A DNA stretch of 64,000 nucleotides from a virus, in the IMG/VR virus record IMGVR_UViG_3300050821_005436, positions 3,194 to 67,193 of that record, one strand, 5' to 3'. Below, piece by piece: positions 10,722 through 38,435 of this stretch. A program made the translations under genes and the position numbers. How positions within the stretch are numbered: the stretch's first letter is position 1; each line of letters starts with the position of its first letter. A model generated the notes under the pieces. That model saw only the letters and a program-made list of their open reading frames with translations, was not told the DNA's origin and searched no databases.

Positions 10722-11356
10722 AAATATATGAAATCGAAGCTGGTGAAAAAGAACCTATTGCACCTGAAGACGAAATTACAGATAGACTTAATCATGTCAT
10801 CCCATTGGTTCAACAGCATTGCACCCAATCACTCCATGCCATGAGAGAGACTGGTAAGTATTTGTATAGAGGCATCAAACAGTCTCCGCCTTTAGTATTC
10901 TTAGGTCAATCCAGAAATAATAGAAATCCATCGGCTTCGCCAGGACAGTTTCAACGAAATGTTGATGCAGCATTTAATATGGCAGGGTTCAAGGCATTAC
11001 GTTCAAATTCAATTTTCGTCTCCTCTTCTATAAGTGAAGCTAAAAATTATAGTTATGAAGGCGTATATTTGATTTTTCCTGTCGATGGATTTTCCTTTAC
11101 ATGGAGCCCAAGAATAAGTGATTTATATATTGATGAATATAATATATTTGATGATTATACCAAACGAACTTTATTTTTCAGAGAAGACGACGCTTCTCCA
11201 GAATTACTAAAAGAATTTTTAGAAAGATCACTCTATAGAAACACTGATTTTACATCAGCGATTGAATCAACTAATGAAATCATGATAAGTGGCAAATATT
11301 ATGCGATTCATTCAAAATACGCAGAACAGCCTGGTCTTAAACAATTGATGATTTGA
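10718..11356 (+). CDS. Paralog family member 3 (short form), ART-like motifs
   Basis: MKIYEI; LYRG, ALRSNSIFVSSS, NEIMISGKYY; ATGA coupling. Confidence 0.55.
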   Translation: MKIYEIEAGEKEPIAPEDEITDRLNHVIPLVQQHCTQSLHAMRETGKYLYRGIKQSPPLVFLGQSRNNRNPSASPGQFQRNVDAAFNMAGFKALRSNSIFVSSSISEAKNYSYEGVYLIFPVDGFSFTWSPRISDLYIDEYNIFDDYTKRTLFFREDDASPELLKEFLERSLYRNTDFTSAIESTNEIMISGKYYAIHSKYAEQPGLKQLMI

Positions 11357-14234
11357 AATATTCATCCAACCATTTCCATTCGAAAGATAACAACAATTTA
11401 CTTAGTTCGCCATTGACGCTTTCATAATATGTGATAGCGTCTTTTGCACCTTTAAGGCACATATCTGCATTCTCGCCTTCGGCAACATTCAACCAAATAT
11501 CCAATCTTTCTTTTGCAATATAGTCGCCATTGTCTGCAAAATATTTCAGCTTGATGCATTCACGGAAGGCTGTTCTCCAACACACCTTACTATCTCTATT
11601 AAAGTGACTAACACCGCTAAGCATAGGAACAACTTCATGTTCTGCTGACAATGTGAAGTCAAGACCGTGCGTATCGTCCATACCTAATACAATATGTTTG
11701 TTATAAGCAATAACAGCTTGGTGGCCATATTCTAATCCATTGACAGGATTCTTTGCATGAAAAATATAGTGTTTAGGTTTCTGTAGGCGGTCTGGCTGCC
11801 AATTAAAATCAAAGGTCGTATCAATTTCTAACTTAGCAAATACGTTGAATGCCCATGGCGTCATACTTGCATTTGATGCTGCCTTATATGCTGCTGATCT
11901 ACCATTCACACCATCAACTCTAACAATACGATTTTCAAATCCTTTATCCAGAATATATTCGTTTAGTTTCATCCACATGTCATTAGCCATCGATTCACCG
12001 TTACTAATAAACACAATATCAAGTGGATTACTTTGATACCAATCTTTCTTATCTGTTGTAATGAATGGATAATCGTATATTTGAGAATTGAAATAGTTCT
12101 TAACGTCTTTTGGGACCAATGCAAACTCTGCACCTTTACTCAACACATGCACTGATCTATCTTTGCCTGACCATAGATTTGGTGTATATGTAAGAACGTT
12201 CCCTTCATATTTTTCAGGTAAAAACAATGCATAATTAGTAGAAAAAACGTGATTTTCGATTACTTGAGGCAAGGTTTCTTCAGTAAATCGCACAGTTTCA
12301 ACGTCATACCTATTAACTGGCTGTACTGATACGTAATTCACTGTTTTAAAGTCCTCTAACTTACTAATTTGCTGTCTCTGCGCTTTAAATTCTGTAATTG
12401 GAACATAAAATGTATCACCATACTTCTGATCATTGCTAGGAAATACGTGCATCATGTTATGTTGCCAAGCACCTGGATGCCAGCTAAAATCAAATGTTGA
12501 ATAATCACATATGCTAGAGATAACCCAAATATATTTTGTCTCAGACTGATTAGCGCATCGCGTTATAGCATCCAAATAGTTATCAACAAATCGCATCGTT
12601 TTGATGTTAGAATACTTTTGCTTTAGAATATCTAATTGTGTTTTGCTTTCTGGATTAAAATGATCTAGATACCAAATATCAATTTGTTCCTCACTATTAT
12701 CCACTGGTTGATTCTTGACAAAATTAAGATTTGGCCAATCTTTGATATCTTCACACCATGTTTTATTTCGATTTAACTCAAACCTGGACAATAGAATTGT
12801 ATCAGTCCATTTATCCCATTTGCTACCGAATACATGCGTCATAGACAGTTCCCAGGGTTCTGGGGACCAACTGAAATCAAATTCATCATAAACAAATTCA
12901 CTGCTGATAATCCAGAATCTGTCTGTATTACATTTATTAGCACAACGGATTGCTGTTTGTTGCAAATTATTAACGAGTCTAGTTTTTTGTATCTGAGGAT
13001 AGTTGTTCTTTAATGATTCAAATCTTTCAGCACTTTCTTTGTTGCCTTTGTCTAAAAAGAACATATCAAGTGATGCTGTATTTGTAGTCTTTATATCAGC
13101 AACGTAATTCAATTCTTTATTACCAGCTAGATACGATGGTGCATTAATGAAATATGTTTCACTGTGCTGTTGCCATTGTGACGCAAATACATGAACAAGA
13201 TCAATTTGACTTTGATCCGGATGCCAACTAAAATCGAATTTATCGTAATTCAATTCTTTACTCAATGCCCAAAACTTTTCAGTCGGATGTTCGCTTATTA
13301 AATCTTCTAACGTAGATAATATGAAATAGCGAGGGGAATTAATACCACTAAGATGAACCCGTACATCATTGATATAATTGCATCCACGAGGCGAGCTTGT
13401 TCCTGAAAAATATGAAGTCTCAGAAGTTTTTTGCCATTGCGAAGGGAAAACATGTTTATAATCCTTTTGACTTTCATCTGGATGCCATGAGAAATCAAAC
13501 GTAGAATAATCTGCATTAGGATCAAGCGTCCAATATTGCATTTCAGGTATTGCTTTAGCTTTTAACTGCGGGACATATTTTTCTTGTGTCGCATTTTTTG
13601 AAACATATATTGGTCCGCCTGTCGTTTGCCACTGAGTTCCAAATTTATAAATATATGGAGGGTCATTAGGATGTGGGCACCAACTAAAATCAAAGCTACT
13701 CTTATCGATATTGGCGGGAACAATCCAGTTATCAGATGGAATAGTTTTTGCTCGAAGTTCATTATGGAATTTTGGAGCAACTGCATTAATGCAATGATAT
13801 TCGGGACCACCAATGTCCCACCATACCGTACCGAATATGTGAATGTAAGATGGCTCGTCTGGGTCAGGGTGCCAGGAGAAGTCGAAACTATCTACATCTA
13901 TGTTTTCAGGGACTACCCAGTTTTCGACACACGGTTTCCTAACAACTCGTTGCTCAGTTCTATAATTTTTAATTAACGTTGATTCAGTTAGATTTGCTGG
14001 AATGAAATACGTTCCAGCATTGCGCTGCCACTGCGAACCAAACACATGAGTATGATGCTGCTCCCATTTAGGTGGCATCCAATAAAAATCAAAATTGTCG
14101 TAATCTGTATCTGCTGTAATCACCCAACAAAACTTAGTTCTGCTTTGTTTTGCAGCATCGAAAATATCTACAGCACGTTTTTCATGTGGAAATAGATTTG
14201 GTTTAGTAGAAGTGGTGTAGAATACGTCGAACAT
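11337..14234 (-). CDS. 965-aa repeat protein built from degenerate glycosyltransferase-like units
   Basis: Eight FDF[SYN]WxP motifs; the C-terminal ~230 aa align by eye with the 312-aa GT at 32008..32946. Confidence 0.65.
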   Translation of the reverse strand: MFDVFYTTSTKPNLFPHEKRAVDIFDAAKQSRTKFCWVITADTDYDNFDFYWMPPKWEQHHTHVFGSQWQRNAGTYFIPANLTESTLIKNYRTEQRVVRKPCVENWVVPENIDVDSFDFSWHPDPDEPSYIHIFGTVWWDIGGPEYHCINAVAPKFHNELRAKTIPSDNWIVPANIDKSSFDFSWCPHPNDPPYIYKFGTQWQTTGGPIYVSKNATQEKYVPQLKAKAIPEMQYWTLDPNADYSTFDFSWHPDESQKDYKHVFPSQWQKTSETSYFSGTSSPRGCNYINDVRVHLSGINSPRYFILSTLEDLISEHPTEKFWALSKELNYDKFDFSWHPDQSQIDLVHVFASQWQQHSETYFINAPSYLAGNKELNYVADIKTTNTASLDMFFLDKGNKESAERFESLKNNYPQIQKTRLVNNLQQTAIRCANKCNTDRFWIISSEFVYDEFDFSWSPEPWELSMTHVFGSKWDKWTDTILLSRFELNRNKTWCEDIKDWPNLNFVKNQPVDNSEEQIDIWYLDHFNPESKTQLDILKQKYSNIKTMRFVDNYLDAITRCANQSETKYIWVISSICDYSTFDFSWHPGAWQHNMMHVFPSNDQKYGDTFYVPITEFKAQRQQISKLEDFKTVNYVSVQPVNRYDVETVRFTEETLPQVIENHVFSTNYALFLPEKYEGNVLTYTPNLWSGKDRSVHVLSKGAEFALVPKDVKNYFNSQIYDYPFITTDKKDWYQSNPLDIVFISNGESMANDMWMKLNEYILDKGFENRIVRVDGVNGRSAAYKAASNASMTPWAFNVFAKLEIDTTFDFNWQPDRLQKPKHYIFHAKNPVNGLEYGHQAVIAYNKHIVLGMDDTHGLDFTLSAEHEVVPMLSGVSHFNRDSKVCWRTAFRECIKLKYFADNGDYIAKERLDIWLNVAEGENADMCLKGAKDAITYYESVNGELSKLLLSFEWKWLDEYFKSSIV

Positions 14235-14262: not shown

Positions 14263-15165
14263 ATGAAAATAAACGAACTTCAAGCTGGTGAGAAACAATC
14301 ATTCGATCCATCAAACACCAAAGAAGGTCATAAATTTAATGACTTCATGATTCAGTGTAGTCAATCTATTGCAGAAATGCAGAAGGTCGGTAAATTTTTG
14401 TTTCGAGGTATTAACAATGCACCTAAAATCTTCATTGGGGTGCCGCGAGCAAATAGAAAGGCCCTCGACACTGACCAAGACGTAAATAATGCATTTGATG
14501 AAATATTGAAAGCAAGTGGATTCAAGGCGTTGCGTGGCAATTCTATTTTTTGTTATGGTGGAGATCCATATGCTGTGTCAAACTTCGGAAAGCCCTATAT
14601 GATTTTTCCTAAAAATGGATACCAATTAACTTGGAGTCCTAAGGTAGAAGATTTTACAAACAAGTTGCCATATCAATTCCAGCCAGAGGATTTTTGGCAA
14701 TTTTCTGAAACAGCAATGAAAGCCAAAGAGGAAATGCAGGACGATGAGTCTCGAAATGAAATTTTCAATCTACTTGATAAGTTAGAAAACAAATTTTATC
14801 ATTCTAATACTCAGCCTGAGGAAAGACTGATCATACGAGACCTGAAGGCTGAATTGGGTAAGCTTGTATATAATGGTGATCAGAAGATATTCAATATCAA
14901 AAAATTACTTAATTTTGATAAAGATACTGATTACTGCATGAACTATATGCCATACATTCGAAAACTTGCTGAAGCACAAAAATTATATCTTTCAACAAAA
15001 GGACATGCAGATTCAATGGATGTTATCAAAGGTTTGAATTATCAAAATACTAACTTAGCGGCAGCTATAGTAGCGAACAAAGAAATAATGATTAGCGGTG
15101 AATATTATGCATTTTCTGCAAAAGACTATCTGAAACCAATGGAAGAGGCTTTGTTAGAAAAATGA
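14263..15165 (+). CDS. Paralog family member 4 (long form), ART-like motifs
   Basis: MKINEL; LFRG, ALRGNSIFC, YMIFPKNG, KEIMISGEYY. Confidence 0.55.
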   Translation: MKINELQAGEKQSFDPSNTKEGHKFNDFMIQCSQSIAEMQKVGKFLFRGINNAPKIFIGVPRANRKALDTDQDVNNAFDEILKASGFKALRGNSIFCYGGDPYAVSNFGKPYMIFPKNGYQLTWSPKVEDFTNKLPYQFQPEDFWQFSETAMKAKEEMQDDESRNEIFNLLDKLENKFYHSNTQPEERLIIRDLKAELGKLVYNGDQKIFNIKKLLNFDKDTDYCMNYMPYIRKLAEAQKLYLSTKGHADSMDVIKGLNYQNTNLAAAIVANKEIMISGEYYAFSAKDYLKPMEEALLEK

Positions 15166-15827
15166 AAATATACGAAATAGAAGCTGGTGAAAGAAATCCT
15201 GTCTCAAATGATGCAAATGAAAAAATTATTGAACTACTTACTACAGAATGCAGTGATGCTATTTCAGCTATGCAGCAAGCTGGAACATTTTTGTATAGGG
15301 GGTTTAAAGATGCTGCTAATGTTCCAGAAGCATTCCATGCCAGACCAAGAGAAGATAGACGTGCATTACACTCTAATCCAAAAATTCAGATTGCATTTGA
15401 TGAAAATATGAAGGTTTATGGCTTTGCTACCAATAGATCAAATTCTATATTTTGCACTTCTGTAAAAAAGAGGACCAGTATCTATGGATACCCTTACTTG
15501 ATCTTCCCTAAGAATGGATTCAATTTTCTATGGAGCCCAGATGTTTATGATTTATTTTCCGACCCGCAGGTCGACGGTTGGGCTGAAACTATAATGCAAA
15601 CATCTAATAAAGAAGCGGCCGCACAAGAGTTTGTTAGGCGTTTCAAATACACTGACAGCAACTTCGTTGCTGCATTAGAAAAAGGCCACGAGATTATGGT
15701 AAGTGGTGAATATTATGCATTCTCTGCTAATAATACAAGTGAGGTATTTAAGCAGCATTATGGTGATAAGATTAATTTTGAAACTATCCTTTCTGCAACA
15801 TTTAAAATCCCATCGCAAGGTGATTAA
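15162..15827 (+). CDS. Paralog family member 5 (short form), ART-like motifs
   Basis: MKIYEI; LYRG, NRSNSIFCTS, HEIMVSGEYY; ATGA coupling. Confidence 0.55.
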   Translation: MKIYEIEAGERNPVSNDANEKIIELLTTECSDAISAMQQAGTFLYRGFKDAANVPEAFHARPREDRRALHSNPKIQIAFDENMKVYGFATNRSNSIFCTSVKKRTSIYGYPYLIFPKNGFNFLWSPDVYDLFSDPQVDGWAETIMQTSNKEAAAQEFVRRFKYTDSNFVAALEKGHEIMVSGEYYAFSANNTSEVFKQHYGDKINFETILSATFKIPSQGD

Positions 15828-16249
15828 AGTTTAGTAACATTGATTCCACAGTGTTTTAAGAAATCAATACCAGACGCATCACGATAAACTTCATCATAGA
15901 AAACTTCTTTGATTCCAGCGCCTTGTATTGCTTTAGCACAATCCATACAAGGGCTCAAGGTGCAATACATTGTTGCACCATTTCCACTTTCTGTTCCTTT
16001 AGCTAATTTTAGAATTGAATTCATTTCTGAATGCACTACTGATGGTTTTGTTTTTGTTGTGCCATCATCTAAAACATCTTCGCAACAATTATCAAAACCT
16101 GAGGGAGTGCCATTCCAAGCAGTAGAAATTATGTTACCATTCTTAACAATAACTGCTCCTACCTTGCGACGTTCTGCATAAGACATTTGGGCTGCACGTT
16201 TAGCAACGTCCATGTAAAATTCATTGTATTTCTTTTCTTTATCGTTCAT
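15824..16249 (-). CDS. cd: dCMP deaminase
   Basis: RRKVGAVIVK, NGTPSG, HSEMN, SPCMDC zinc-deaminase motifs. Confidence 0.92.
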   Translation of the reverse strand: MNDKEKKYNEFYMDVAKRAAQMSYAERRKVGAVIVKNGNIISTAWNGTPSGFDNCCEDVLDDGTTKTKPSVVHSEMNSILKLAKGTESGNGATMYCTLSPCMDCAKAIQGAGIKEVFYDEVYRDASGIDFLKHCGINVTKL

Positions 16250-17736
16250 AACACTCTTACGTTATATTTTTGTTCAAACATTGCAGCATCCTGCAGATCA
16301 TTTACCATGGGAAATCCTCTAACGTTTAGTGACGTATTCAACAACATCGGGCATCCTGTCTTAGCATACCAAACTTCTAATAACTTTCTAACACCACTCT
16401 TAGAATTTATAGGAACTGTCTGAACGCGTGATGTGTTATCAGTATGAACAATAGCAGGGAATCGATTAGGAAATTTACATGGTGCGACCACTTGCATGTA
16501 ATCACTCTTGTCCCAACCATGAGGCATAATAAAATATTGATGCACATGTTCCTCAAGTATGATGGGAGCGAATGGTCTGAAGTTCTGTCTGCGCTTAATA
16601 GAATTTACTTGATCTTTAATCTCTGGGCCCCTTGGATCAGCTAACAAACTTCTATTGCCCAAAGCACGAGGACCAAACTCTGCACAACCATTCGCTACCC
16701 CGACAATCTTATTTGTTTGAAGTTCATTAATTAGATCATCTACAGGATAAGGTCTATCGATATTATATCCTAGGTAGGGCCCTTGCCAAGACATTTGTTT
16801 GCCATAATTCAATGCACATGCACCTAGGCTGCTACCAGCATCGCCCGGATTTGGCATTACCCATATATTCTCAAAATAATTTCCTATTAGTCTATTAGCT
16901 AAACAATTCAATGCAACACCACCCATGAATACTAAATTATAAGATTTACCTATTGCCGCAGCACGACTCATTACATTACAAATCAATGTCTCAGTTATAG
17001 TTTGAACACTCGCAGCAACATCAATCTTATGTGTATGATGATTCGAATCTAAAAATGTAGGATCGATTCCGATATGCAAATTTTCTTTAAATTGAATTTC
17101 GTATTCGTTCGAGATATATTTGTTTTTGATTTCATCAGCATACTTTGGTTCGCCATATGCAGACATGCCCATCATAATGTATTCTTCATCCAACGGTTCC
17201 AATCCAACATGCTTTGTAAATGCACTATAGAACAATCCAATGCTGTGCGGATACTTAGAAGACCAAAGCTTTTTATAAAATGCCTTTCCATTATAATCAT
17301 ATTGTGCATGCCAAATCGTGATGCAATCAAACTCTCCGATTGCATCAATGACAACTACCGTAGCATGTTCGAAATTAGATGTTTGAAACCCTGCTGCTGC
17401 ATGAGACATATGATGATCATAACTAACGAATGGAACTTTGCTTAAATTAAATTTCCGTAATATCTCAGATGTTGGATTACATCTGAATACATTATAATTT
17501 TCTCCGCTACGAAGTTGTCTAATTTTTTTCTTTGTATGATTTTCATAGTAAGCAATCGTGTCTGGCTTACCGAAATTATCTATAGCATATGATAGCATTG
17601 ATTCACTTAAATCTTTATCGTGTTTCTTTTTAGAGAAACGTTCTGAATGGGATGCAAACAAAATATTTTCATCTTGTGTGATTGTCAATGCTGCGTCATG
17701 GAAGCCCGCTGAGATGCCATAGATTAATTTTGTCAT
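16246..17736 (-). CDS. O-carbamoyltransferase (NodU/CmcH/TobZ family)
   Basis: GFHDAA, HHMSHAA, DAIGE, GGVALNC, GDAGSSLG, EFGPRALGNRS, FRPFAP, RVQTV, LLNTSLN. Confidence 0.95.
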   Translation of the reverse strand: MTKLIYGISAGFHDAALTITQDENILFASHSERFSKKKHDKDLSESMLSYAIDNFGKPDTIAYYENHTKKKIRQLRSGENYNVFRCNPTSEILRKFNLSKVPFVSYDHHMSHAAAGFQTSNFEHATVVVIDAIGEFDCITIWHAQYDYNGKAFYKKLWSSKYPHSIGLFYSAFTKHVGLEPLDEEYIMMGMSAYGEPKYADEIKNKYISNEYEIQFKENLHIGIDPTFLDSNHHTHKIDVAASVQTITETLICNVMSRAAAIGKSYNLVFMGGVALNCLANRLIGNYFENIWVMPNPGDAGSSLGACALNYGKQMSWQGPYLGYNIDRPYPVDDLINELQTNKIVGVANGCAEFGPRALGNRSLLADPRGPEIKDQVNSIKRRQNFRPFAPIILEEHVHQYFIMPHGWDKSDYMQVVAPCKFPNRFPAIVHTDNTSRVQTVPINSKSGVRKLLEVWYAKTGCPMLLNTSLNVRGFPMVNDLQDAAMFEQKYNVRVL

Positions 17737-18344
17737 AATAATTTCTTCTCAATGTGAGTAATCAATTCGTTAGCAACATCTGCTGTGCTGCCAAACTTCA
17801 CTGCCCCGTTAGGAAATATAGTTTGATTCTTCAAATACATTTCCTTCATTACTGCTATGTTTTCTAATTTTGGGTTATCGTTTCTATACTTTTCTTCATG
17901 ATCGTATGCGGTGAATGTAATTGTAGGAACATCATAACAACTAAAGAATTCAGCTAGACCAAAACATGATGCATAGAATTGCGTTCCTAAATTTTCATCA
18001 TTCAAAAACTTTCTGCCAAACTTCACCAAATCTTTTGTATGTGGAAACTCTTTATGATGTTGATCCAAACTATCTAGATTCATTCCCATGTATTGTTTTA
18101 ATTTGGGATCGAAATAAGTAAAAATGTTTCTAGTGGTTTCTTGCACCACACAAACATACGTATCGTCAGGATAGGTTCCTTTAAGTTTAGTGTATGTGCT
18201 ATATGCTGTAGCTGAGATTAATGATTGCCCAGATTTCGCCTTAGCATAGTTTTCTACTATCCAATCAGGTTTCTTGTTTTTGACAAGATCAACAATACCT
18301 GATTGTTCCGTATAGGCATCGCCAAAAAATAATATTCTATTCAT
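17733..18344 (-). CDS. Divergent SGNH-like protein lacking the catalytic Ser
   Basis: ILFFGDAYT (GDS changed to GDA) and NYAKAKSG block-II-like segment; coupled to the carbamoyltransferase. Confidence 0.45.
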   Translation of the reverse strand: MNRILFFGDAYTEQSGIVDLVKNKKPDWIVENYAKAKSGQSLISATAYSTYTKLKGTYPDDTYVCVVQETTRNIFTYFDPKLKQYMGMNLDSLDQHHKEFPHTKDLVKFGRKFLNDENLGTQFYASCFGLAEFFSCYDVPTITFTAYDHEEKYRNDNPKLENIAVMKEMYLKNQTIFPNGAVKFGSTADVANELITHIEKKLL

Positions 18345-18347
18345 AAT

Positions 18348-18452
18348 TTATTTGTAGATAAATGGATCTCGTTCTTTCATCTTCTTAAGACGCTTGCGAT
18401 ATAACACTTCCATCTTAAATTTCAACCACATTAGCTTAAACCAATTTTTCAT
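18348..18452 (-). CDS. Unannotated 34-aa basic peptide MKNWFKLMWLKFKMEVLYRKRLKKMKERDPFIYK
   Basis: Translated by hand; ATGA overlap with the upstream stop and ends 3 nt before the next ATG, filling the gap exactly. Confidence 0.8.
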   Translation of the reverse strand: MKNWFKLMWLKFKMEVLYRKRLKKMKERDPFIYK

Positions 18453-19273
18453 AATATTTTCCTTTTTTGCATTTCTTCTACTAACCATTTTCCTATAACT
18501 TTGTGTGAATCACAATTTACATGCAAGCCAGGCAGATAAAAATTTTTGTTACCATAATAATCTTCTAGCTTATAAACCATTGCTATAGGCATACAATACT
18601 TATCATCAAAAAATACATCATGCATAAATGACATATCCAAATTTGATTCGCCTATCTTGTGTTGATTATCCCACATGATAAAGTGCAGAAAATCTATATT
18701 ATTATCGATGCAATATTTTTGCACCATTGCACTCTGCATATAATAATCAAAATGTATTTGTTCTACTTTAGAATACTTCAAATAGATATCTTTGATTTCA
18801 TATGCTTCTAACTCATCATAATAATATCGTTCTAGCAAAGGCAACACATAACTTTTCAGCCCATTGATAGGTCTATTATAGACTCGATTTGGGTCTCTGT
18901 CTTTTATCCAAATCCTGTCAGGACTAGTATCTTGCATGATACAAATGATTTTTTCAGTAGGATAATTTTTCTTCACTTCATCCAAAGTAATTAACGTTTT
19001 TTGCGCTATCTCTTGTTGTGATGCGCCACCCATTCCTACATTTATTACTTCGCATTCTAATATATTTTTTAATGTTCCGCTGTAAGACAGATTGCGGGCC
19101 TTTTCATCAATATTACTGTGTGCGCCTTTGTTGCCAGGTGGTTTATTAAAAAAATCCTCTGATATTTTCGTTCCTTCTTCGTAGGTTTTTGCTTGACTGT
19201 AGAAGGGGATAGTTTTTTCTTCCCAAAGTTCAGCACCATGTGTAAATGAACATCCAGAGCAAACAATAATCAC
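18449..19273 (-). CDS. SGNH/GDSL-like hydrolase/acyltransferase paralog
   Basis: GCSFTHG, NVGMGGAS, C-terminal LPGLHVN. Confidence 0.7.
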   Translation of the reverse strand: MIIVCSGCSFTHGAELWEEKTIPFYSQAKTYEEGTKISEDFFNKPPGNKGAHSNIDEKARNLSYSGTLKNILECEVINVGMGGASQQEIAQKTLITLDEVKKNYPTEKIICIMQDTSPDRIWIKDRDPNRVYNRPINGLKSYVLPLLERYYYDELEAYEIKDIYLKYSKVEQIHFDYYMQSAMVQKYCIDNNIDFLHFIMWDNQHKIGESNLDMSFMHDVFFDDKYCMPIAMVYKLEDYYGNKNFYLPGLHVNCDSHKVIGKWLVEEMQKRKIL

Positions 19274-20046
19274 ACTAAACCCCTGATTTTTAACTCTTCA
19301 AATAGCAACTTTGCAATTATTTTTTGTGCTTCGCAATTCACATGTAATCCAGGCAATACAAAATTATTATGTTGATAGTATTCTACTAGCATATTCGTCA
19401 TATTATCTTTTACAGTGTGATTAGGATCAAAATATATTTTTTCGATCATTGATAGTTCCACAGTCTTATTCCATTGGTCATCGCGTTTCCAATTTCGGAA
19501 CATTTGAAAATGCAAAAAATCTATATCATTATTAATACAGAAATTTTTAACTGCAAGTCCTTGAAGGTAATATTCAGATAACAGCATTTCAGTTGGTTGT
19601 TTAGTCAGATAAATATGTTTTATTTCATATCCGTCTATTTTGTTTCCAGGAAAAAAGGTTTCTGCTCCCGATACAATAACATTAAGATTTTTTTCAAACT
19701 CATCACACCAAAGCCACACACGTTCAAGTTGTGTATCTTGCATAATGCACACAATTTTCTCATAAGGGAACTCATTTCTAATTTTATTCAATTTGTTTAT
19801 AGTTTTTTGTGAGATGGCGTGCTCTGAACAGCCATCTTCTCCTATATTAAATGATCTACAATTTAATTTTTGTGCTAATGCATAAGGCCAGGTTAGTTGT
19901 AACCTTGCTTCCTCATTGTCTAATGTTTTTACTTTTGCATCAAGTGCTTCTTCTTTAGTTTTCAATTCAGTATAACCAGGAACGTTCTTTTCTTCCCAAA
20001 GTTCCATACCATGCGTAAATGAATCACCTGAACAAACTAGTATCAT
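19270..20046 (-). CDS. SGNH/GDSL-like paralog
   Basis: GDSFTHG, TWPYALA, NIGEDGCS, LPGLHVN; GAGGA SD. Confidence 0.7.
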   Translation of the reverse strand: MILVCSGDSFTHGMELWEEKNVPGYTELKTKEEALDAKVKTLDNEEARLQLTWPYALAQKLNCRSFNIGEDGCSEHAISQKTINKLNKIRNEFPYEKIVCIMQDTQLERVWLWCDEFEKNLNVIVSGAETFFPGNKIDGYEIKHIYLTKQPTEMLLSEYYLQGLAVKNFCINNDIDFLHFQMFRNWKRDDQWNKTVELSMIEKIYFDPNHTVKDNMTNMLVEYYQHNNFVLPGLHVNCEAQKIIAKLLFEELKIRGLV

Positions 20047-20062
20047 AATTTTCCTCTACTAT

Positions 20063-20070
20063 TATTTATA
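20063..20070 (-). promoter_or_regulatory. Late promoter, full T4 consensus TATAAATA
   Basis: TATTTATA on + strand, 16 nt upstream of the ATG at 20046. Confidence 0.75.
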
Positions 20071-20107
20071 GAGTAATAGCACGATATAATTCTTATTTCA
20101 CTGACAC

Positions 20108-20113
20108 TAAATA
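20108..20113 (+). promoter_or_regulatory. Late promoter core for the inverted fibre-like gene
   Basis: TAAATA followed by a 10-bp RNA hairpin (20120-20142) and an AAGGAG SD (20182-20187). Confidence 0.6.
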
Positions 20114-20193
20114 TTAATCCATACTTGCACAATGTAGGTATGTAATGATATTGAAGAAATCAAAAGTTTTACTAACATATAAAGGAGAAAATT

Positions 20194-20973
20194 ATGACAA
20201 CTTCAAACCTTTCCACAACGCTGACAGCGATTCTGCCATCAGCAACCTCTACCACTCTTGGTGGTGTCTTAGTAGATTCAACTTCATCTGGCTTACTTGC
20301 TATGTCTGATGGACATATTGCTGTGAAATACAGTACTGGTCTTCAGATTGATAGTACAGGTCACTTACATGTTGATTCAACACAATTTTTAACTACATCT
20401 GATGCATTTGCTGAATATGCACAAATATCATCTTTGTCTAATTATTTGCCAGTTACTGGCGGTATTGTATATGGGCCAACACAAATTGATAGTACTGGAT
20501 CTCTTCATCCTGGTAATATTCAATTCAATGTTGACGGTACTGGTGCATTTTTAGAATTCAACGTTGGTGTGAGCGGAGTTAATGGTGGCATCGTATTTTC
20601 AGATGGCTCTACACAAACCACTGCATTTACAGTCCAAAAATTACTCAATATTACAGACTGGGTGAGTAACTCACAAACCGGTGTATGGACTGGTTCGCCC
20701 TCTAGCATTACTCTTGGTCCAGACAATAATTGTGAAATTATTCAATTATCATCTTATCCAACTACTCTTAACGTAATTTTCCCTACGCCAGCAAACGATG
20801 GACAGTTCTTCGAACTAGTCATTATTGGCGGTAGCGGCGGATATGCATTCAGTGGATTGGGAATTGATGGTGTAACTTCTGTCACAATCCTCAATGACAT
20901 TGGATCTACTGCATATGAGAAAGGCGGATTCAGATACAAAACTAGTACTAATACTTGGTATCAAGTTTCGTAA
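20194..20973 (+). CDS. Short fibre/decoration-like virion protein
   Basis: LPSATSTTLGGV and GIVFSDGSTQTTA fibre motifs; C-terminus (FPTPANDGQFFEL...RYKTSTNTWY) resembles the C-terminus of 1975..4470 (FPTPLADGHTFEL...RYVASTTTWY). Confidence 0.65.
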   Translation: MTTSNLSTTLTAILPSATSTTLGGVLVDSTSSGLLAMSDGHIAVKYSTGLQIDSTGHLHVDSTQFLTTSDAFAEYAQISSLSNYLPVTGGIVYGPTQIDSTGSLHPGNIQFNVDGTGAFLEFNVGVSGVNGGIVFSDGSTQTTAFTVQKLLNITDWVSNSQTGVWTGSPSSITLGPDNNCEIIQLSSYPTTLNVIFPTPANDGQFFELVIIGGSGGYAFSGLGIDGVTSVTILNDIGSTAYEKGGFRYKTSTNTWYQVS

Positions 20974-21695
20974 GTAATAAAAACGGGACATAATGTCCCG
21001 TTTTTCATTTTATCAATCAACCACTCTGCTATATGTTTATGTGCTTCACAATTTAAATGCCCGCTCGGAAGCAAAACCTCTGTTGTACCCAATTTATCAT
21101 AAAACCAATTTATTGACAAATCATTTTGTATTTCTTCTTGTTGTAATAGCTTAAATTCTAAGAAATCTATATTTAGAATGTTACATACATATTTTACTGC
21201 TAATATTTGCAAATAATAATTATCTTCTAAGATCCTCTCATCAATAAAATCTATACAAACATTTTGTATTTCGTATGCTTCCAATTTATCTCCGTGGTGT
21301 GTTTCTATAATTGACGGGATAATAATACTGAAATTTTTATTATAGATATTATTATACAACCATAATCTATATTTTTCAGTCATCTGATGTATGCACAATA
21401 TAGATTCATTAGGATTATTTTTTCTAATCTTGTTTAATGCCACACATAAATTTTGCAATATTTCTAGTTGAGAAGCACCACTAATGCCTAGGTTTAAAAC
21501 TTCACAGCATAATATATTTTTCAAATGACCAGAATAAGTTAAATCTCGTCGTTCTAAATCATTGTCGTTAGAAATTGACCGTATTATTTTGTATGCCTCA
21601 TATGGATCAGTAATTAATGTATAACCAGGAACATTCTTTTCTTCCCAAAGTTCTGCTCCAGCAGTAAATGAGTCTCCAGCACAAACAATAATCAT
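20961..21695 (-). CDS. SGNH/GDSL-like paralog
   Basis: GDSFTAG, NLGISGAS, LPSGHLN. Confidence 0.7.
   Translation of the reverse strand: MIIVCAGDSFTAGAELWEEKNVPGYTLITDPYEAYKIIRSISNDNDLERRDLTYSGHLKNILCCEVLNLGISGASQLEILQNLCVALNKIRKNNPNESILCIHQMTEKYRLWLYNNIYNKNFSIIIPSIIETHHGDKLEAYEIQNVCIDFIDERILEDNYYLQILAVKYVCNILNIDFLEFKLLQQEEIQNDLSINWFYDKLGTTEVLLPSGHLNCEAHKHIAEWLIDKMKNGTLCPVFITYET
20979..21005. terminator. Bidirectional rho-independent terminator
   Basis: AAAAACGGGACA-TAA-TGTCCCGTTTTT, a perfect 12-bp inverted repeat between convergent genes. Confidence 0.85.
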
Positions 21696-22465
21696 AAAAA
21701 TTTATCCTCGACATACTCAATCAAATCATTTGCAATTATCTCATGATATTGACCTTTCAAATGCCAAGAAGGTAACACTGCATCCTTCTCTTTTATTCGA
21801 TAGTAATCATATGCTCTCTGTAATGCGCCCATCGGAAAAATATCAACGGTTTTCATATACTCAGACTTCATTGCACGTATTTTTTCAGACATATCAAATC
21901 TGTATGTGTATGCATGATTATAAAAAGAAAAATTTAAGAATGATATGTTAAGTTTCTTGAAGAAGTCTCGTATAATAAATGCTTGAGAATAAAATTGTGT
22001 CGCCAATGTTTCTTCATCTATAAATTTCTTAATATAACTTACTAATTCTGAAGTCTCTGGATAGTTGTTCATATGAATGTCAATTTTATCAACATTCAAC
22101 CCCTCTAATTGATATTTTTGGCTACTGCAAAAAGTCATTCTATTTCTGAACGTGTCTTGGGTGACGCAGATAATTTTTTCGTTTGGATATTCCATCCTAA
22201 TTCTAACAAAATTGTTGAACATGTTTTCGGTGATCATTTGTTGTGATGCGCCACCTTTCCCAAAATTGTGTATTGACCAATCTGTTCTCATTTCCTTCAT
22301 GAATCCAGTATAAGTTAGATCCTTTCTAAGAACATCAGTAGTTGGATTATACACCATACTACTTCTAGCAATGTCAGGTGTCATTAAGCAATATCCTGGC
22401 ACATTTTGTTCTTCCCACAATTCAGTTCCATCCGTATATGAATCACCAACACAAATAACGATCAT
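21692..22465 (-). CDS. SGNH/GDSL-like paralog
   Basis: GDSYTDG, NFGKGGAS, LPSWHLK; GAGGA SD. Confidence 0.7.
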   Translation of the reverse strand: MIVICVGDSYTDGTELWEEQNVPGYCLMTPDIARSSMVYNPTTDVLRKDLTYTGFMKEMRTDWSIHNFGKGGASQQMITENMFNNFVRIRMEYPNEKIICVTQDTFRNRMTFCSSQKYQLEGLNVDKIDIHMNNYPETSELVSYIKKFIDEETLATQFYSQAFIIRDFFKKLNISFLNFSFYNHAYTYRFDMSEKIRAMKSEYMKTVDIFPMGALQRAYDYYRIKEKDAVLPSWHLKGQYHEIIANDLIEYVEDKFL

Positions 22466-22502: not shown

Positions 22503-23357
22503 ATGACTACGATTAAAATCACTTTTAATACGCACTACACGTTAGATTTTACATTAACTGAATCTGAGATATCAGAGCGATGGCTCACTGTGTTAAAAGA
22601 TGCTATCAAAAATTACAGTATAGATGATCCAATGAGATTCTATGGCTTTTCTTCCAATGCTGATATTGCACTCCAAAAAATAAACACAACAATAGATACG
22701 ATAAACAACCATAAACCGTTAATTGATAGAAACGTGTTATCAGTTCATGATTATGATACTCTGAATTACTTGCACAGCATTTTTGAAAAACACCATGGAC
22801 TATCAGATGCGCAAACAAATGAATTCAAAAGTATGCCAGAAGAATACCAGAAAGCATTGTGCCAATTGAACATAGATGTTCATAGATGCGAGTCTGTCCT
22901 CAGAGGTAACAAACCCAGGGTCGTCGTAACGTATTTTGAGCAACCAAAGACAGAAAAATTCAATGATGCTGATTTTGATTTGATGACTAATCGATATGAA
23001 TTCGGAACTGTTTATCTTAATTATGTGAATATCGGAAAAACTTTAGAAGATTTAGCACAAGACAATGATGAATATATCAGTAGAGAAGCATTCAAGCCAT
23101 TCATAAATTTTAGTTCTGATTTCAATATCAAATTTTGGGACACTGATGTTCCAAAAGCAAAGATAGTAGAAAAAATGATGGACGAATATTACATTGAGCA
23201 TCAAGAATTTTTCAATTCGTTGGGCTATGAAAGAAATCATCCGTATTTAAAACCAGGCTCAATTCCTGTAGCAAAATTGTCTAGCAGTGAAGATCGTGAA
23301 TCTATCATTAACAACATAAAGAACAATCAACTCATTACAAAGATATTAATAGAATGA
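22503..23357 (+). CDS. Hypothetical protein (284 aa) coupled to a radical SAM gene
   Basis: Long ORF with ATGA overlap to the downstream gene; His motifs LNYLHSIFE and LNIDVHRCE. Confidence 0.7.
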   Translation: MTTIKITFNTHYTLDFTLTESEISERWLTVLKDAIKNYSIDDPMRFYGFSSNADIALQKINTTIDTINNHKPLIDRNVLSVHDYDTLNYLHSIFEKHHGLSDAQTNEFKSMPEEYQKALCQLNIDVHRCESVLRGNKPRVVVTYFEQPKTEKFNDADFDLMTNRYEFGTVYLNYVNIGKTLEDLAQDNDEYISREAFKPFINFSSDFNIKFWDTDVPKAKIVEKMMDEYYIEHQEFFNSLGYERNHPYLKPGSIPVAKLSSSEDRESIINNIKNNQLITKILIE

Positions 23358-24307
23358 AACGAATCATAGAAATTTTCTCAGAAAAGCCAAACACATTTCA
23401 TATTGATTTTTTGATCAACAATATTTGCCAAAATTCTTGCTGGTATTGTGAGCCAAATCTATACAATGGTTCTAATCATCATTTCGAAGATGAAGAATTA
23501 TTTGCATTCATTGATAATCTGAATTCGAATCTAAAAGATAAAAAAGTTCATATCGCATTTAGTGGTGGCGAGCCAACTCTCTATCCCAAATTTATAGAGT
23601 TAGTTCAACGAATGAAATCCTTAGGATGGACAGTAGGACTTACTTCAAATGGACAAAGAACTGCTAGATACTTTTCTGAACTCGCACCACACTGTGCATA
23701 TATTGCAATGTCGTATCATTCAGAATTTGCTAAAGAGGATTGGATGAATACTGCGTTAGCTGCTGCTGAACATACACAAGTGCTCGTGCGTGTTATGATG
23801 GATCCATATAATTGGGATCATTGCTATGCTAAGTTTAATGAGTTTGCTGCAAATCCCAATTTAGCTGTTGAAGCTGTCAGATTATATAGACATGAAGGTA
23901 TGAGTCTAGGGGCAGACGGGAAGGATGTGGGTTATATTGATGAACAAGACGCATGGTTAAACAGCGTATCAAGAGTAGAACGTAAGAATTGGATTCAAAC
24001 CGAAGTCAATACAACTGATGCATTCGCCAAGTTCAATGATAGTGAATTCAAAAAGATCAATACGATTGATTTAGTTAATTCAAAGCAGAATTCATTTGTA
24101 GGATTTGAATGTGATATCGGTAAAGCGAGTTTGTTTATAAATTATGATGGCCAAGTGAAGCGGGGGAATTGCTTCAATGATGGATGGGAGGGAAGATTTA
24201 ATGAAGTGGATTTAGAAAAACTCTTATCCACTTCTACCAAATGTCGGACGCCATTCTGTTATTGCGGGATTGACGTTACTGTCCCTAAGAGAAAATTACC
24301 TAAATAA
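23354..24307 (+). CDS. Radical SAM enzyme with C-terminal SPASM/Twitch-like Cys domain
   Basis: CQNSCWYC, SGGEPTL, TSNG; C-terminal C..G...GNC...C..PFCYC. Confidence 0.9.
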   Translation: MKRIIEIFSEKPNTFHIDFLINNICQNSCWYCEPNLYNGSNHHFEDEELFAFIDNLNSNLKDKKVHIAFSGGEPTLYPKFIELVQRMKSLGWTVGLTSNGQRTARYFSELAPHCAYIAMSYHSEFAKEDWMNTALAAAEHTQVLVRVMMDPYNWDHCYAKFNEFAANPNLAVEAVRLYRHEGMSLGADGKDVGYIDEQDAWLNSVSRVERKNWIQTEVNTTDAFAKFNDSEFKKINTIDLVNSKQNSFVGFECDIGKASLFINYDGQVKRGNCFNDGWEGRFNEVDLEKLLSTSTKCRTPFCYCGIDVTVPKRKLPK

Positions 24308-25456
24308 TTTATGATTTGTTCCGCGCGTTTCATCTAATCCATTCAACACCTCTTTCATTTTCTTACGTTCAGTATAGTCAGGTTTATTGTTTTCTAACCA
24401 AGAATTCACAGTAGAAACAATCTGTTGATTATCAATCTTTGTGATACTTTCTTTAACTTGCTCTTGCTCTTGCTCCGTTAATGCTGAGGCAGAATAATAA
24501 GATGGTGAATAGACTGGATTCACATGCATATCTAAATTATAGTTTTTTAACCAATTATACATGCATGGAACTTCTACATAATTGATTGCTGATAGTGTTT
24601 GACACACCATGTAATATACATTGTCAGGCTTATTCGCAATGAACCATTCTAAGTTAGCAACGATGTTTTCAAATTTAGAACCCCATCGCAAATAATCATT
24701 AAATTCACCTAGTGCATCAATACTGAATTGCACAACTACGCGCTTAAACTGACTCCAAAGTTCAATAAATTCTTCATCTTTGATCGTTAAATTGATACTG
24801 TATTCAATATGAATGTTCTTAGCAACTCCCATATCAATAAGTTTTTGAAGCAATACCTTGTGTTGCTTGATTAGAAGTGGTTCTCCACCATTGATATAAA
24901 TTTTCTGAACATGTTTGCTTATAGCTGCTAGATTTTCGTAAAATTCTTCGCTTTCGAACCAACGAGTTTGCTTAGAATTTTCAAAAGCTTTGAACCATTC
25001 AATTTTCTTTGTAAGAAACTGTTCATCCTTACTCCACTTAGAACTAGATATGCTGTTACACGTAATGCAGGCCAGGTTACACGTATTACCCAACCGTAAC
25101 TCGATGAATTGTAAAGGTGAATCAATGCTACCATCCACATACGTAAATGTGTCATCTTCTTTCCAGTTATATAAATGATTTTCTAACTGTCTCTTACTTC
25201 TTCCGCCAGATCGCTCTGTTTCATAGCATCTATGGCATTGGGAAGGTTCAATTCCAGCAAGCATATTTAGACGAACTTGTTTAAATGATTCACTGTTGCG
25301 AATTTCATCTAATGTATTTTTACCTAAGAAAAGCATCTGCCCGTTTGTTCTAGCAAATGTATCTGAATTAGAAAAATCACCTTGACAACATACACTTACA
25401 GAACCATTTGGATGTGATGCAAGATGATTCCACATCAATGCACATGATTTAAACAT
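24296..25456 (-). CDS. Radical SAM enzyme with N-terminal Twitch-like domain
   Basis: N-terminal C...CC...CHRC; CNLACITC; NGGEPLL. Confidence 0.9.
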   Translation of the reverse strand: MFKSCALMWNHLASHPNGSVSVCCQGDFSNSDTFARTNGQMLFLGKNTLDEIRNSESFKQVRLNMLAGIEPSQCHRCYETERSGGRSKRQLENHLYNWKEDDTFTYVDGSIDSPLQFIELRLGNTCNLACITCNSISSSKWSKDEQFLTKKIEWFKAFENSKQTRWFESEEFYENLAAISKHVQKIYINGGEPLLIKQHKVLLQKLIDMGVAKNIHIEYSINLTIKDEEFIELWSQFKRVVVQFSIDALGEFNDYLRWGSKFENIVANLEWFIANKPDNVYYMVCQTLSAINYVEVPCMYNWLKNYNLDMHVNPVYSPSYYSASALTEQEQEQVKESITKIDNQQIVSTVNSWLENNKPDYTERKKMKEVLNGLDETRGTNHKLFR

Positions 25457-26738
25457 TTTTCCACCATTCTAACGCATCACCAGTCAATATTGTATTCATA
25501 GATAAAGCTGTTTTCCTATGTTCCTCTAACTTCATATATCGTTCCTTACCCCATTTGATACCTTGTTCATAGTTATCATATTTTTGATCAAACGTCTGAC
25601 GATTCTTCATGTCTTTAAATGTATCTGCATATACTTTTGTATAAGGTGAATTCAAAGTGCTTTCATATGAAATCAAATCATCCAAGATTGGATCTAGAAT
25701 TGCATGCGGAAGACACATCGGGCTCATGATTGCAGAACTTTCAAAATCAAACGTAATCTTAACATAAGATTTTACTTGCAATTCTGCTGCAAGTCTCATT
25801 AAATTTTTCATATCAAACAGACCAGGCAAAGTTATCGTCACATCAATAACCATTCCGTTCATTCCGAACAGATTATTTAAGAACATACCTTCTTTAAAGT
25901 TCTCTAACCATTGCTCCCATTTAAGTCCAGTTCTAATGTATTCTGCAACATCGCCTGTTGCATCCATGCTTGCACATACATTCACCCCCTTAAAGTAAGG
26001 TAACAAATCATATAGATTTCTTACATTGCTTAGATTTGTATTGTATCGCACGATTACATTTTTACTCTGACCAGACTCTACAAGATGATTCATTATCGAC
26101 CAGTGAATAGGATACATAAGTGGCTCTCCACCAACCCAATATATTTCTTCAATACGATTTTCTTTGACTGCATCCCAAAGTTCTTGTTCCAAGACTTGTT
26201 GAAAATTTTCTATCTTCGCTTTGTTATCAGCATTCATCCATTTTTCAGTTTGCGGATTCCAAGTGCCTAGCATTCTTTTTTCACTTTCCCATGCAGAACT
26301 AAGTTCTGGGCCACACATACGACATTTGAAGTTACACAGATTGCTAACACGGTAATCATAGCTCATTGGCTTCAATGAAGTATATCCATTTTCGTCAATA
26401 GAATCAAACGCTTCTTGAATCTTCTGTGAAAACAATGTTTCATTAAAATATTGTTTATATGTATGAAGATTCAAGATATTATCATTGCATATTTCGCACT
26501 GCGAGGGAACTTCACCATTTTTCATTTTCAATCGTATGCTTCGAATGTATTCGCTATTCCACCAATCATCTAGGGGAATAGGATTATAGTCTGAGTGTTT
26601 TGCTTCACCCTTATCAATATACCCTTTAAAGAATTGCGGTTCCTCTCTACTAGCACAACATAATCTGCGCTCTCCTGTAGGATGCGCCATAGTATGCAAT
26701 ACCGAAGCAGTGCAAAATGATTTTGGTATTTGAGACAT
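25449..26738 (-). CDS. Radical SAM enzyme with N-terminal Twitch-like domain
   Basis: FC...LCC...CEIC; CNFKCRMC; GGEPLM; YNTN. Confidence 0.9.
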   Translation of the reverse strand: MSQIPKSFCTASVLHTMAHPTGERRLCCASREEPQFFKGYIDKGEAKHSDYNPIPLDDWWNSEYIRSIRLKMKNGEVPSQCEICNDNILNLHTYKQYFNETLFSQKIQEAFDSIDENGYTSLKPMSYDYRVSNLCNFKCRMCGPELSSAWESEKRMLGTWNPQTEKWMNADNKAKIENFQQVLEQELWDAVKENRIEEIYWVGGEPLMYPIHWSIMNHLVESGQSKNVIVRYNTNLSNVRNLYDLLPYFKGVNVCASMDATGDVAEYIRTGLKWEQWLENFKEGMFLNNLFGMNGMVIDVTITLPGLFDMKNLMRLAAELQVKSYVKITFDFESSAIMSPMCLPHAILDPILDDLISYESTLNSPYTKVYADTFKDMKNRQTFDQKYDNYEQGIKWGKERYMKLEEHRKTALSMNTILTGDALEWWKNV

Positions 26739-38429: not shown

Positions 38430-38435
38430 TATTTA
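38430..38435 (-). promoter_or_regulatory. Late promoter core overlapping the stop of the giant gene
   Basis: ggaTAAATAttctttATG on the minus strand. Confidence 0.65.

Follow-up and report, generated by a model that had tools for sequence, protein, structure and literature searches.

In a 64-kb stretch of viral DNA (the window, taken from the 67-kb IMG/VR record IMGVR_UViG_3300050821_005436, whose completeness is estimated at ∼19%), we analyzed an O-carbamoyltransferase (CT) gene that is grouped with the gene of a 34-amino-acid (34-aa) microprotein and with those of five paralogous proteins, S1 to S5, of the SGNH fold. Computationally, we established the genes and their conservation, the linkage of the peptide to the CT and the SGNH proteins (natural fusions included), a shared F-x-Y motif, and a modeled CT-peptide interface. 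We propose that the three components form a soluble carbamoyl-transfer module, namely a carbamoyl-tyrosine relay that would resemble the FXYXXF acyl shuttle of DltX and PatA; the evidence is computational, and in our judgement the proposal stands about evenly between right and wrong. All of the genes described in an earlier note on this DNA were found in their places, on the minus strand (Table 1).

A conserved microprotein gene accompanies many viral carbamoyltransferase genes

When IMG/VR was scanned with the CT, at least 598 stretches gave a match, and the best 80 loci (45 to 96% CT identity) were kept; together with the window, these make up the 81 viral CT loci counted here, and the Ralstonia phage RsoM2USA was added separately. 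Because many of these loci are near-duplicates, the counts do not represent independent events. A micro-open reading frame (micro-ORF) with a basic tail, ending in [F/Y]-I-Y or [F/Y]-I-Y-K, is present in 41 of the 81 loci; a search for small PFIY ORFs beside phage CTs was a check that the earlier note had put forward. With RsoM2USA included, there are 43 occurrences, comprising 29 distinct sequences. Two subtypes can be distinguished: the first (∼33 aa, ending in RKRDPFIYK) accompanies CTs that are at least 50% identical, and the second (26 to 35 aa, ending in (D/R/K)(R/K)(Y/F)IY) accompanies CTs of 45 to 48% identity.

An alignment of 24 peptides (that of the window plus 23 of 27 reference peptide ORFs) shows no variation at Ile32 and Tyr33 and a conservation of at least 90% at Phe31. 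At the codon level, pairwise comparison of 16 distinct 33-codon genes among the 29 peptides gave 253 synonymous and 0 non-synonymous differences for the last six codons (DPFIYK), and 750 synonymous and 256 non-synonymous differences for codons 17-33. Further, 1.84 billion proteins were searched with a profile built from the 24 sequences, which yielded 157 cluster representatives (E ≤ 0.001). We fetched 149 of these; 128 end in [F/Y][I/V/L]Y plus 0 to 2 residues, and the remaining 21 are mostly read-through variants or retain the Tyr in a variant context. Searches of Pfam, PHROGs, and NCBIfam with the 34-aa peptide returned no match, and a peptide hidden Markov model (HMM) run against all short frames of 84 loci added no members beyond the regular-expression set. 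Judged by its conservation, the micro-ORF is a real, selected gene.

The closest cultured relative, RsoM2USA (CT 44% identical), carries an unannotated 36-aa ORF ending in DPFIYK, which was found by tblastn at positions 8035-8145 of locus L001 (about 125891-126001 of MG752970.1, complement, where the GenBank record has no annotation). This gene is flanked by two S-like genes and lies one gene upstream of the CT; gp200, gp201, and gp203 of this phage belong to the S family, and gp202 is a radical S-adenosylmethionine (radical-SAM) protein.

The position of the peptide gene relative to the CT gene takes three forms. In 25 of the 43 occurrences, its stop codon directly adjoins the CT start or overlaps it, one or two S genes intervene in 16, and in the other two (L063 and a second copy in L075) it lies away from the CT, beside S genes. 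An S gene lies within 100 nt of the peptide gene in 33 of the 43 occurrences, which, together with the 41 positive loci, supports a conserved partnership of the peptide with the CT and with SGNH-like proteins. Of the viral loci, 54 extend for 3 kb or more on each side of the CT; in 28 of these, both the peptide and an S gene are present, and in 3, the peptide only. A dCMP deaminase was seen in the flanks of no more than 14 of 84 loci, and its being a constant member of the module is not supported. None of the 102 viral S ORFs, and no viral CT protein, ends in the tail. In phage C48C1, whose CT is 37% identical, neither the peptide nor an S gene adjoins the CT. Three IMG/VR loci (L011, L017, and L023) have CTs of 58 to 60% identity with no peptide nearby; there, the CT follows an amidinotransferase-like gene (C-terminus GGGHHC), a dehydrogenase-like gene, and other sugar-type genes, so that CTs of this one clade occur in another setting as well.

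The carbamoyltransferase and its modeled peptide interface

The CT consists of a Carbam_trans_N domain (Kae1-like; Pfam E-value 3.3e-39) followed by a Carbam_trans_C domain (YrdC-like; 3.5e-49), and its relatives in the Protein Data Bank (PDB) are NovN (2e-50), GdmN (1e-41), and TobZ (7e-33). His108, His112, Asp131, and Asp299, as well as His13, are invariant or nearly so in 24 sequences. By motif spacing, rather than by structural superposition, His13 corresponds to the general base H27 of GdmN, and His108, His112, and Asp131 to its iron ligands H133, H137, and D156 (PMC9633730; here and below, statements ascribed to a PMC article refer to the available part of its text). By its domains and motifs, the protein is a class III O-carbamoyltransferase (NodU/CmcH/TobZ/GdmN) in its predicted activity. 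It shares with TobZ, GdmN, and NovN the domain order, the HxxxH plus Asp metal motif, and the general-base His. However, those three enzymes act directly on small-molecule acceptors, without a described peptide partner, and they are longer (576 to 702 aa, compared with 496 aa).

Modeling of the CT in complex with the peptide, for which the earlier note had named AlphaFold-multimer, gave ipSAE scores of 0.65, 0.66, and 0.67, against 0.00 for the best control. Of 80 solved complexes, 58 attain this mark, as do 2 of 110 mismatched pairs, counts that hold only roughly here because custom CT and peptide alignments were used. The runs agreed in at least 97% of contacts, with a partner pLDDT of 77 to 78. 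In the model, one face of the peptide helix (residues 10, 14, 15, 17, 18, 21, 22, and 25) packs on CT residues 217-225, while tail residues 29-34 contact CT residues 12, 132-133, 163, 168, 171-172, 175, 181-182, and 217-223. The motif-spacing mapping would place these tail contacts within or next to loops 1 and 2, helix 2, and loops 3 and 4' of the GdmN acceptor pocket (PMC9633730). The complex model thus supports binding of the peptide by the CT, with the tail at residues that motif spacing assigns to the acceptor pocket.

Predicted fold and signature residues of the S proteins

S1 to S5 are mutually paralogous (25 to 36% blastp identity), with S5 being closest to S1. Among them, S2 alone matches a Pfam GDSL model, weakly and under the cut-off (E 0.04). 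An AlphaFold2 (AF2) model of S4, computed from 53 aligned sequences (the five window paralogs plus 48 of 65 available references), reached a pLDDT of 83 and a pTM of 0.82. By Foldseek, it resembles GDSL esterases, Escherichia coli TesA among them (prob 1.0; TM, target-normalised, 0.6-0.7), with PatB at rank 30 and the crocagin protein CgnD (8a2n) at rank 45. On this model, the S proteins have the SGNH α/β fold.

An S-family HMM, iterated over the fetched loci, recovered 102 ORFs in 53 of 84 loci. Across the 73 non-identical members of at least 170 aa, conservation (S4 numbering) is 99% for Gly7, 93% for Ser9, 96% for Arg120, and 95% for His251. The G-x-S nucleophile motif of block I is kept in S1 to S4. 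S5, by comparison, has Ala, Ile, and Ala at the Ser9, Arg120, and His251 positions; it had been noted before as an SGNH paralog devoid of the Ser, and proves to lack the Arg and the His as well. With these signature residues replaced, S5 is therefore most likely catalytically inactive. In block V (Asp-x-x-His), the Asp is absent from phage S1 to S4 (LPGLH, LPSGH, PSWH), whereas bacterial fused relatives have D250 and H253. In block III (Gly-x-Asn-Asp), no conserved oxyanion Asn was found; the 96% conserved Arg (position 120 in S4) is seen instead. The number of S paralogs varies: the window has five and RsoM2USA has three, and some IMG/VR loci contain as many as four.

A CT-adjacent bacterial member of the family, in Agromyces (L093, 9350-10195), matches Pfam DUF6071 (1.4e-24), and DUF6071 therefore belongs to the same SGNH-like group.

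Natural fusions and membrane-type counterparts in bacteria

A bacterial scan with the CT alignment (one genome per species) matched at least 600 stretches, of which 80 loci were kept, namely 19 close loci (43 to 56% CT identity) and 61 distant ones (29 to 36%). The close loci come from Streptomyces, Nocardia, Agromyces, Geodermatophilus, and several metagenome-assembled genomes (MAGs), some of which are possibly phage contigs. The soluble basic tail motif is present in 14 of these 19 loci, and DUF5989 in none of them. In Geodermatophilus amargosae and in a Terrimicrobiaceae MAG, the motif forms the C-terminal end of a protein of the S family, whose gene lies directly upstream of that of the CT. 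Moreover, among homologs of the Geodermatophilus protein (E ≤ 1e-5), 50 of 73 clusters end in a basic helix plus DPFIY, while the other 23 stop shortly past the SGNH domain. These natural fusions, recognized by sequence, are the strongest evidence for a link between the peptide and the SGNH proteins.

The bacterial fusion was also modeled by AF2, from an alignment of 54 of the 73 sequences. Its SGNH domain is predicted with confidence, the linker (pLDDT <50 at residues 279-298) resembles a disordered tether of ∼40 residues, and the tail helix (residues 311-332) is predicted with a pLDDT of 72 to 77, falling to ∼63 at the last residues. The model describes the fused tail as a tethered arm. The PDB matches of the fused S-family model include CE2 esterases (E 2.5e-6) and CgnD (8a2n, rank 2, E 3e-6).

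The distant loci present a membrane-type counterpart. In 28 of the 61, a ∼50-aa protein with a hydrophobic helix ends in PFIY(T/S)LF and matches Pfam DUF5989 (∼1e-24); its neighbors are SxtJ (PF19588) and membrane-anchored proteins with weak GDSL/AlgX matches. A micro-protein ending in APFIYTLF, which the earlier note had described for bacterial CT loci, is thereby recovered, and the published saxitoxin cluster agrees, in which sxtI is accompanied by the uncharacterized short ORFs sxtJ and sxtK and by the GDSL-like sxtL (PMC2885083). These loci resemble the phage module in that the CT lies beside a micro-protein ending in PFIY and beside SGNH/GDSL-like proteins. However, bacterial DUF5989 has a transmembrane helix, the full PFIY(T/S)LF end, and the membrane protein SxtJ beside it, whereas the phage peptide has a basic helix, and the phage CT belongs to a different, shorter clade (∼490 aa) with 29 to 36% identity to the DUF5989-linked CTs. 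The DUF5989 model found no match in the 67-kb record, nor was SxtJ found there.

Membership of the micro-ORF in DUF5989/SxtK was considered and is not supported, given the absence of a Pfam hit, a basic rather than transmembrane helix, and no SxtJ in the record. In an Algoriphagus locus (L107, 10291-11712), an MBOAT protein ending in FLYFRF, an FXYXXF motif of its own, and a GDSL/AlgX-PD40 protein adjoin the CT-DUF5989-SxtJ set, which places two shuttle-type systems side by side.

A proposed carbamoyl-tyrosine relay

Enzymes of the O-carbamoyltransferase class form carbamoyl-AMP from carbamoyl phosphate in an ATP-dependent manner. In the proposed relay, (i) the ATP-dependent CT would convert carbamoyl phosphate into carbamoyl-AMP; (ii) the CT would move the carbamoyl group to the phenol of Tyr33 of the microprotein, with the basic helix docked and the DPFIYK tail inserted into the acceptor pocket; (iii) the resulting aryl carbamate would be handed to the Ser of an SGNH-fold paralog, with its Ser-His pair and invariant Arg; (iv) each paralog would deliver the group to its own acceptor, most likely hydroxyls or amines of a sugar structure that the sugar-nucleotide and radical-SAM genes nearby would assemble; and (v) S5 would be a catalytically dead paralog, perhaps an adaptor. 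We infer all of the chemical steps at Tyr and Ser, as well as the identity of the acceptor. A CT requires an amine or a hydroxyl as its target, and the peptide has just one invariant hydroxyl, that of Tyr33; most simply, then, Tyr33 would be carbamoylated by the CT, and the S proteins would receive the group from it. Aryl carbamates, tyrosine carbamate being one, are a class that carbamoylates serine hydrolases; the hand-over from Tyr to Ser would therefore be plausible, and onward transfer less so.

In DltX and PatA, an acyl group is carried on the Tyr of a C-terminal FXYXXF motif (e.g., FIYANF) and passed to the Ser of the SGNH proteins DltD and PatB (PMC12148441). The DltX/DltB/DltD and PatA/PatB systems and the phage module have in common a tiny protein or C-terminal tail, an invariant Tyr within F-x-Y, and an SGNH partner with a Ser. 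Further, the motif is either free or fused in both cases, being free in DltX and fused in PatA, and here free in phages and fused in bacteria. DUF5989 carries the full FXYXXF motif, and the soluble form retains F/Y-I-Y. The differences are that the acyl shuttles use an MBOAT donor, whereas a soluble ATP-dependent O-carbamoyltransferase would serve here; that acyl groups are transferred there, and a carbamoyl group is proposed here; that the phage module has no membrane segment or signal peptide; that the phage motif ends at Y or YK; and that the fusion partner is the SGNH protein rather than, as in PatA, the donor. No MBOAT was found in the 67-kb record, and AT3 was not searched for.

Several observations weigh against the relay. 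Carbamoyl-serine enzymes usually turn over slowly, as is seen in carbamate inhibition of serine hydrolases, and a Ser relay is therefore chemically less obvious for carbamoyl than for acyl groups. The need of a soluble enzyme for a carrier is also unexplained. Among the 54 well-flanked viral loci, 17 have an S gene and no detectable peptide, and 6 have neither. In addition, the CT interface is equally conserved with a nearby peptide (30 sequences) and without one (24 sequences), and the pocket could therefore be a general acceptor site for another substrate, into which the tail is modeled by default. The phage motif, F-I-Y-K or F/Y-I-Y at the very C-terminus, is without the last three positions of FXYXXF. 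Lastly, the peptide had no hit to Pfam DUF5989 (PF19451) at E ≤ 10, and hhalign of the phage peptides against DUF5989 gave 18% probability over 8 columns; homology to DUF5989 is therefore not claimed. Of the earlier idea that the phage operon echoes sxtI/sxtK/sxtL, the C-terminal PFIY near a CT and SGNH proteins stands; homology could not be demonstrated.

O-carbamoyltransferases have been treated as stand-alone tailoring enzymes. If the carbamoyl-tyrosine relay is real, a conserved Tyr-tailed partner, free or fused to an SGNH protein, would mean that one large CT branch works via a protein-bound intermediate, and the recently established principle of the acyl-tyrosine shuttle would then also cover another chemical group and another donor enzyme, and would hold in the cytoplasm. 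In a wider form, which in our estimation falls somewhat short of an even prospect, this would be an unrecognized cytoplasmic, ATP-driven relay, in which one CT loads the Tyr and a set of SGNH-fold proteins unloads it onto different acceptors; a membrane form (CT, SxtJ, DUF5989, and an anchored SGNH protein) would account for the small partners of bacterial CTs, sxtJ and sxtK among them, and the crocagin cluster would be an offshoot. To our knowledge, DUF5989 and SxtJ/SxtK have been without explanation ever since the saxitoxin cluster was described. The relay would supply a testable function for them, as well as for DUF6071-like SGNH proteins and for a family of micro-genes, at least 157 clusters in size, that has gone unannotated. 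In phages, the trio would mark part of a large, common tailoring island in giant aquatic phages. In the literature searched, which lay outside subscription journals and supplementary files, DUF5989 is unmentioned and the terms 'acyl shuttle' and 'carbamoyltransferase' are never joined.

Alternative readings of the microprotein and of the acceptor

We consider it unlikely that the microprotein is instead the precursor of a peptide made by the ribosome and modified after translation (RiPP), with the (F/Y)-I-Y(K) core being carbamoylated by the CT, and perhaps edited by radical-SAM enzymes, and the basic leader being cleaved by an SGNH-fold protein. SPASM-type radical-SAM enzymes often act on peptides, and five N_Twi_rSAM genes lie near the module; moreover, the complex model suits a peptide substrate as well as a carrier. 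The precedent is crocagin, in which the 21-aa precursor CgnA has a positively charged leader and a C-terminal Ile-Tyr-Trp core, CgnD is an esterase-fold leader peptidase, and CgnI is a carbamoyltransferase (PMC10070186). Like the phage trio, this cluster combines a carbamoyltransferase and a protein of the esterase fold with a short basic peptide that has a Tyr close to the C-terminus, and the S family structurally resembles CgnD, more highly ranked for the bacterial fused protein than for phage S4. However, in crocagin the carbamoyl group is placed on a hydroxylated side chain of the released core (PMC10070186), by a pathway with one peptidase and no known fusions, whereas several S paralogs and bacterial fusions are found here. 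For a RiPP, it would be unusual that the peptidase bears its own precursor as a C-terminal fusion, as in 50 of the 73 clusters, and five peptidase paralogs for a single invariant core would be hard to explain. Further, compact S-peptide-CT-S modules (e.g., L051) and bacterial pairs of fused S-tail protein and CT have no adjacent oxidase or radical-SAM gene, and glycosyltransferases flank the bacterial loci. Pfam scans of the window genes examined turned up no CgnC-type dioxygenase, for which no dedicated search was made, and neither CgnB nor CgnE was seen in Pfam scans of the genes examined, no search being aimed at either. A purely non-covalent subunit is likewise improbable in our view; here the microprotein or fused tail would tether the SGNH proteins to the CT, or gate its pocket as a pseudo-substrate, without ever being carbamoylated itself, and the CT and then the SGNH enzymes would act in turn on the same sugar substrate. 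Such a role would suit the tight translational coupling, the confident modeled interface with its helix face on CT 217-225, the disordered tether and helix of the fused tail, as expected of a recruitment arm, and the conservation of the interface residues irrespective of a nearby peptide. The strictest constraint, however, falls on the C-terminal Tyr and its F/Y-I neighbors rather than on the helix; the model sets the motif beside the equivalent of the general-base His; and the same motif is known to carry acyl groups in DltX and PatA (PMC12148441). A regulatory leader or arrest peptide, whose conserved C-terminus would stall the ribosome at the stop codon and tune translation of the overlapping downstream gene, appears highly unlikely: the ORF is short, its conserved C-terminus contains a Pro, and its stop overlaps the downstream start in many loci, but the same tail is fused to an SGNH C-terminus in 50 clusters, the downstream gene is variably a CT or an S gene, and a stable CT interface is modeled.

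As for the acceptor in the carbamoyl-tyrosine relay, a glycan context is provided in the window by an NAD-dependent epimerase/dehydratase and a DegT aminotransferase (7186-9233), which come after the thymidylate synthase gene, by the five N_Twi_rSAM genes and one further radical-SAM gene, and by the 965-aa repeat protein. In bacteria, glycosyltransferases of the GT2 and GT4 families flank the loci of the soluble type. The alternative that the CT carbamoylates 5-hydroxymethylcytosine (5hmC) in DNA, with the coupled dCMP deaminase in the same nucleotide pathway, we regard as very improbable. That a phage CT can carbamoylate 5hmC, as the earlier note had stated, is indeed published; the enzyme (∼63 kDa) is sufficient alone in vitro, and cytosine-modified metagenomic contigs pair a CT with thymidylate-synthase homologs, PRA-PH, and dCMP deaminase domains (PMC8670742). 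It resembles the window CT in being of the same enzyme class, phage-borne, and often beside a dCMP deaminase. In the window, the deaminase is translationally coupled to the CT, and the 14 loci with a flanking deaminase also speak for a nucleotide pathway, as does an Asp at the E. coli Asn177 position in a second thymidylate-synthase homolog of RsoM2USA. However, the 5hmC carbamoyltransferase co-occurs with an Asp177 thymidylate-synthase homolog, whereas the window's only homolog, which lies beside dihydrofolate reductase (DHFR), is canonical, with His147 and Asn177, i.e., of the dUMP type (criterion of PMC8670742). In two trio-bearing relatives, G001 (97% complete) and G002 (98% complete), there is likewise just one homolog apiece, again with these canonical residues, and 5hmC DNA as the acceptor in this lineage is accordingly disfavored. 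Moreover, PRA-PH was unmatched in the 67-kb record, and the neighbors of the module are sugar-nucleotide enzymes and radical-SAM genes. The window CT is also accompanied by the microprotein and SGNH paralogs, whereas SGNH and GDSL occur 0 times in the available text of PMC8670742.

The RsoM2USA homolog (L165, 7739-8398 of the record) is divergent, with Thr at the His147 position in addition to the Asp at Asn177, a pattern associated with dCMP-specific enzymes, and by this sequence signature the phage may modify cytosine.

Gene organization and neighboring genes

The module genes are arranged in two units (Table 1). Overlaps of 4 nt join S1 to S2, S3 to S4, S4 to the peptide gene, S5 to the CT, and the CT to the deaminase, and 3 nt separate the peptide gene from S5. 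S2 and S3, by contrast, are 914 nt apart, and this gap contains an ORF on the opposite strand. Of the single, tightly coupled late operon that had been described, the coupling thus holds at most junctions, while the single unit does not. As to its late expression, one TATAAATA stands upstream of S3. However, this element is depleted in the window as a whole, where it occurs twice and shuffles predict 9.7 sites; it was rejected as a general late promoter, and the designation as a late operon is not supported by it. Megablast of the region against 50,697 phage records gave zero matches.

Table 1. Positions of the module genes and of other features in the window
Feature	Position	Strand	Description
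DHFR and canonical thymidylate synthase	5774-7185	+	Side by side; motifs PCH and PFNIASY
965-aa protein	11337-14234	-	Eight FDF(S/Y/N)W.P repeats, ∼65-130 residues apart
dCMP deaminase	15824..16249	-	141 aa; overlaps CT; Pfam dCMP_cyt_deam_1 (1.3e-23) and PHROG match
CT (O-carbamoyltransferase)	16246..17736	-	496 aa; predicted NodU/TobZ/GdmN class; Kae1-like and YrdC-like domains; PHROG 1601
S5	17733..18344	-	Degenerate SGNH-fold paralog, 203 aa; without equivalents of Ser9, Arg120, and His251
Micro-ORF	18348..18452	-	34 aa; basic amphipathic helix; ends in ERDPFIYK followed by the stop; Tyr33 invariant
S4	18449..19273	-	SGNH-fold paralog, 274 aa; stop overlaps micro-ORF start (ATGA); AF2 model and Foldseek
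S3	19270..20046	-	SGNH-fold paralog, 258 aa; opens second unit
TATAAATA	20063..20070	-	17 nt 5' of S3 start; possible T4-type late promoter (weak evidence)
S2	20961..21695	-	SGNH-fold paralog, 244 aa; start shares 4 nt with S1 stop
S1	21692..22465	-	SGNH-fold paralog, 257 aa; family Gly-x-Ser, Arg, and His present; family HMM E 2.6e-41
Sixth, different radical-SAM gene	23354-24307	+	
Five radical-SAM paralogs	24296-31763	-	NCBIfam NF033640 (N_Twi_rSAM), 1e-88 to 3e-96, above curated cut-off

The opposite-strand ORF in the S2-S3 gap (20194-20973, plus strand) encodes a 259-aa, Ser/Thr/Gly-rich protein with no family match in Pfam or PHROGs. It splits the S array, its end overlaps the end of S2, and it is conserved in two relatives with 96% identical CTs, L004 and L005 (three phmmer hits at three loci). 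Facing the deaminase end of the operon, two adjacent plus-strand genes (14263-15827) encode paralogs of 300 and 221 aa, 41% identical over 135 residues, again without a family match.

Among the genes farther out, the five NF033640 radical-SAM paralogs carry their SPASM/twitch domain at the N-terminus. The 965-aa repeat protein has no Pfam or NCBIfam match. In relatives, proteins that share its N-terminus (MFD[IV]FY) are encoded after the CT or deaminase (739 aa in L006, 558 aa in L012, and 1222 aa in L026). The window also holds T4-type baseplate and fiber genes, with a gp9/10 N-terminal domain and pectate-lyase-like domains, and, at 38433-51710 on the minus strand, one ORF that is 4425 aa long, after which come three more (1133, 678, and 912 aa).

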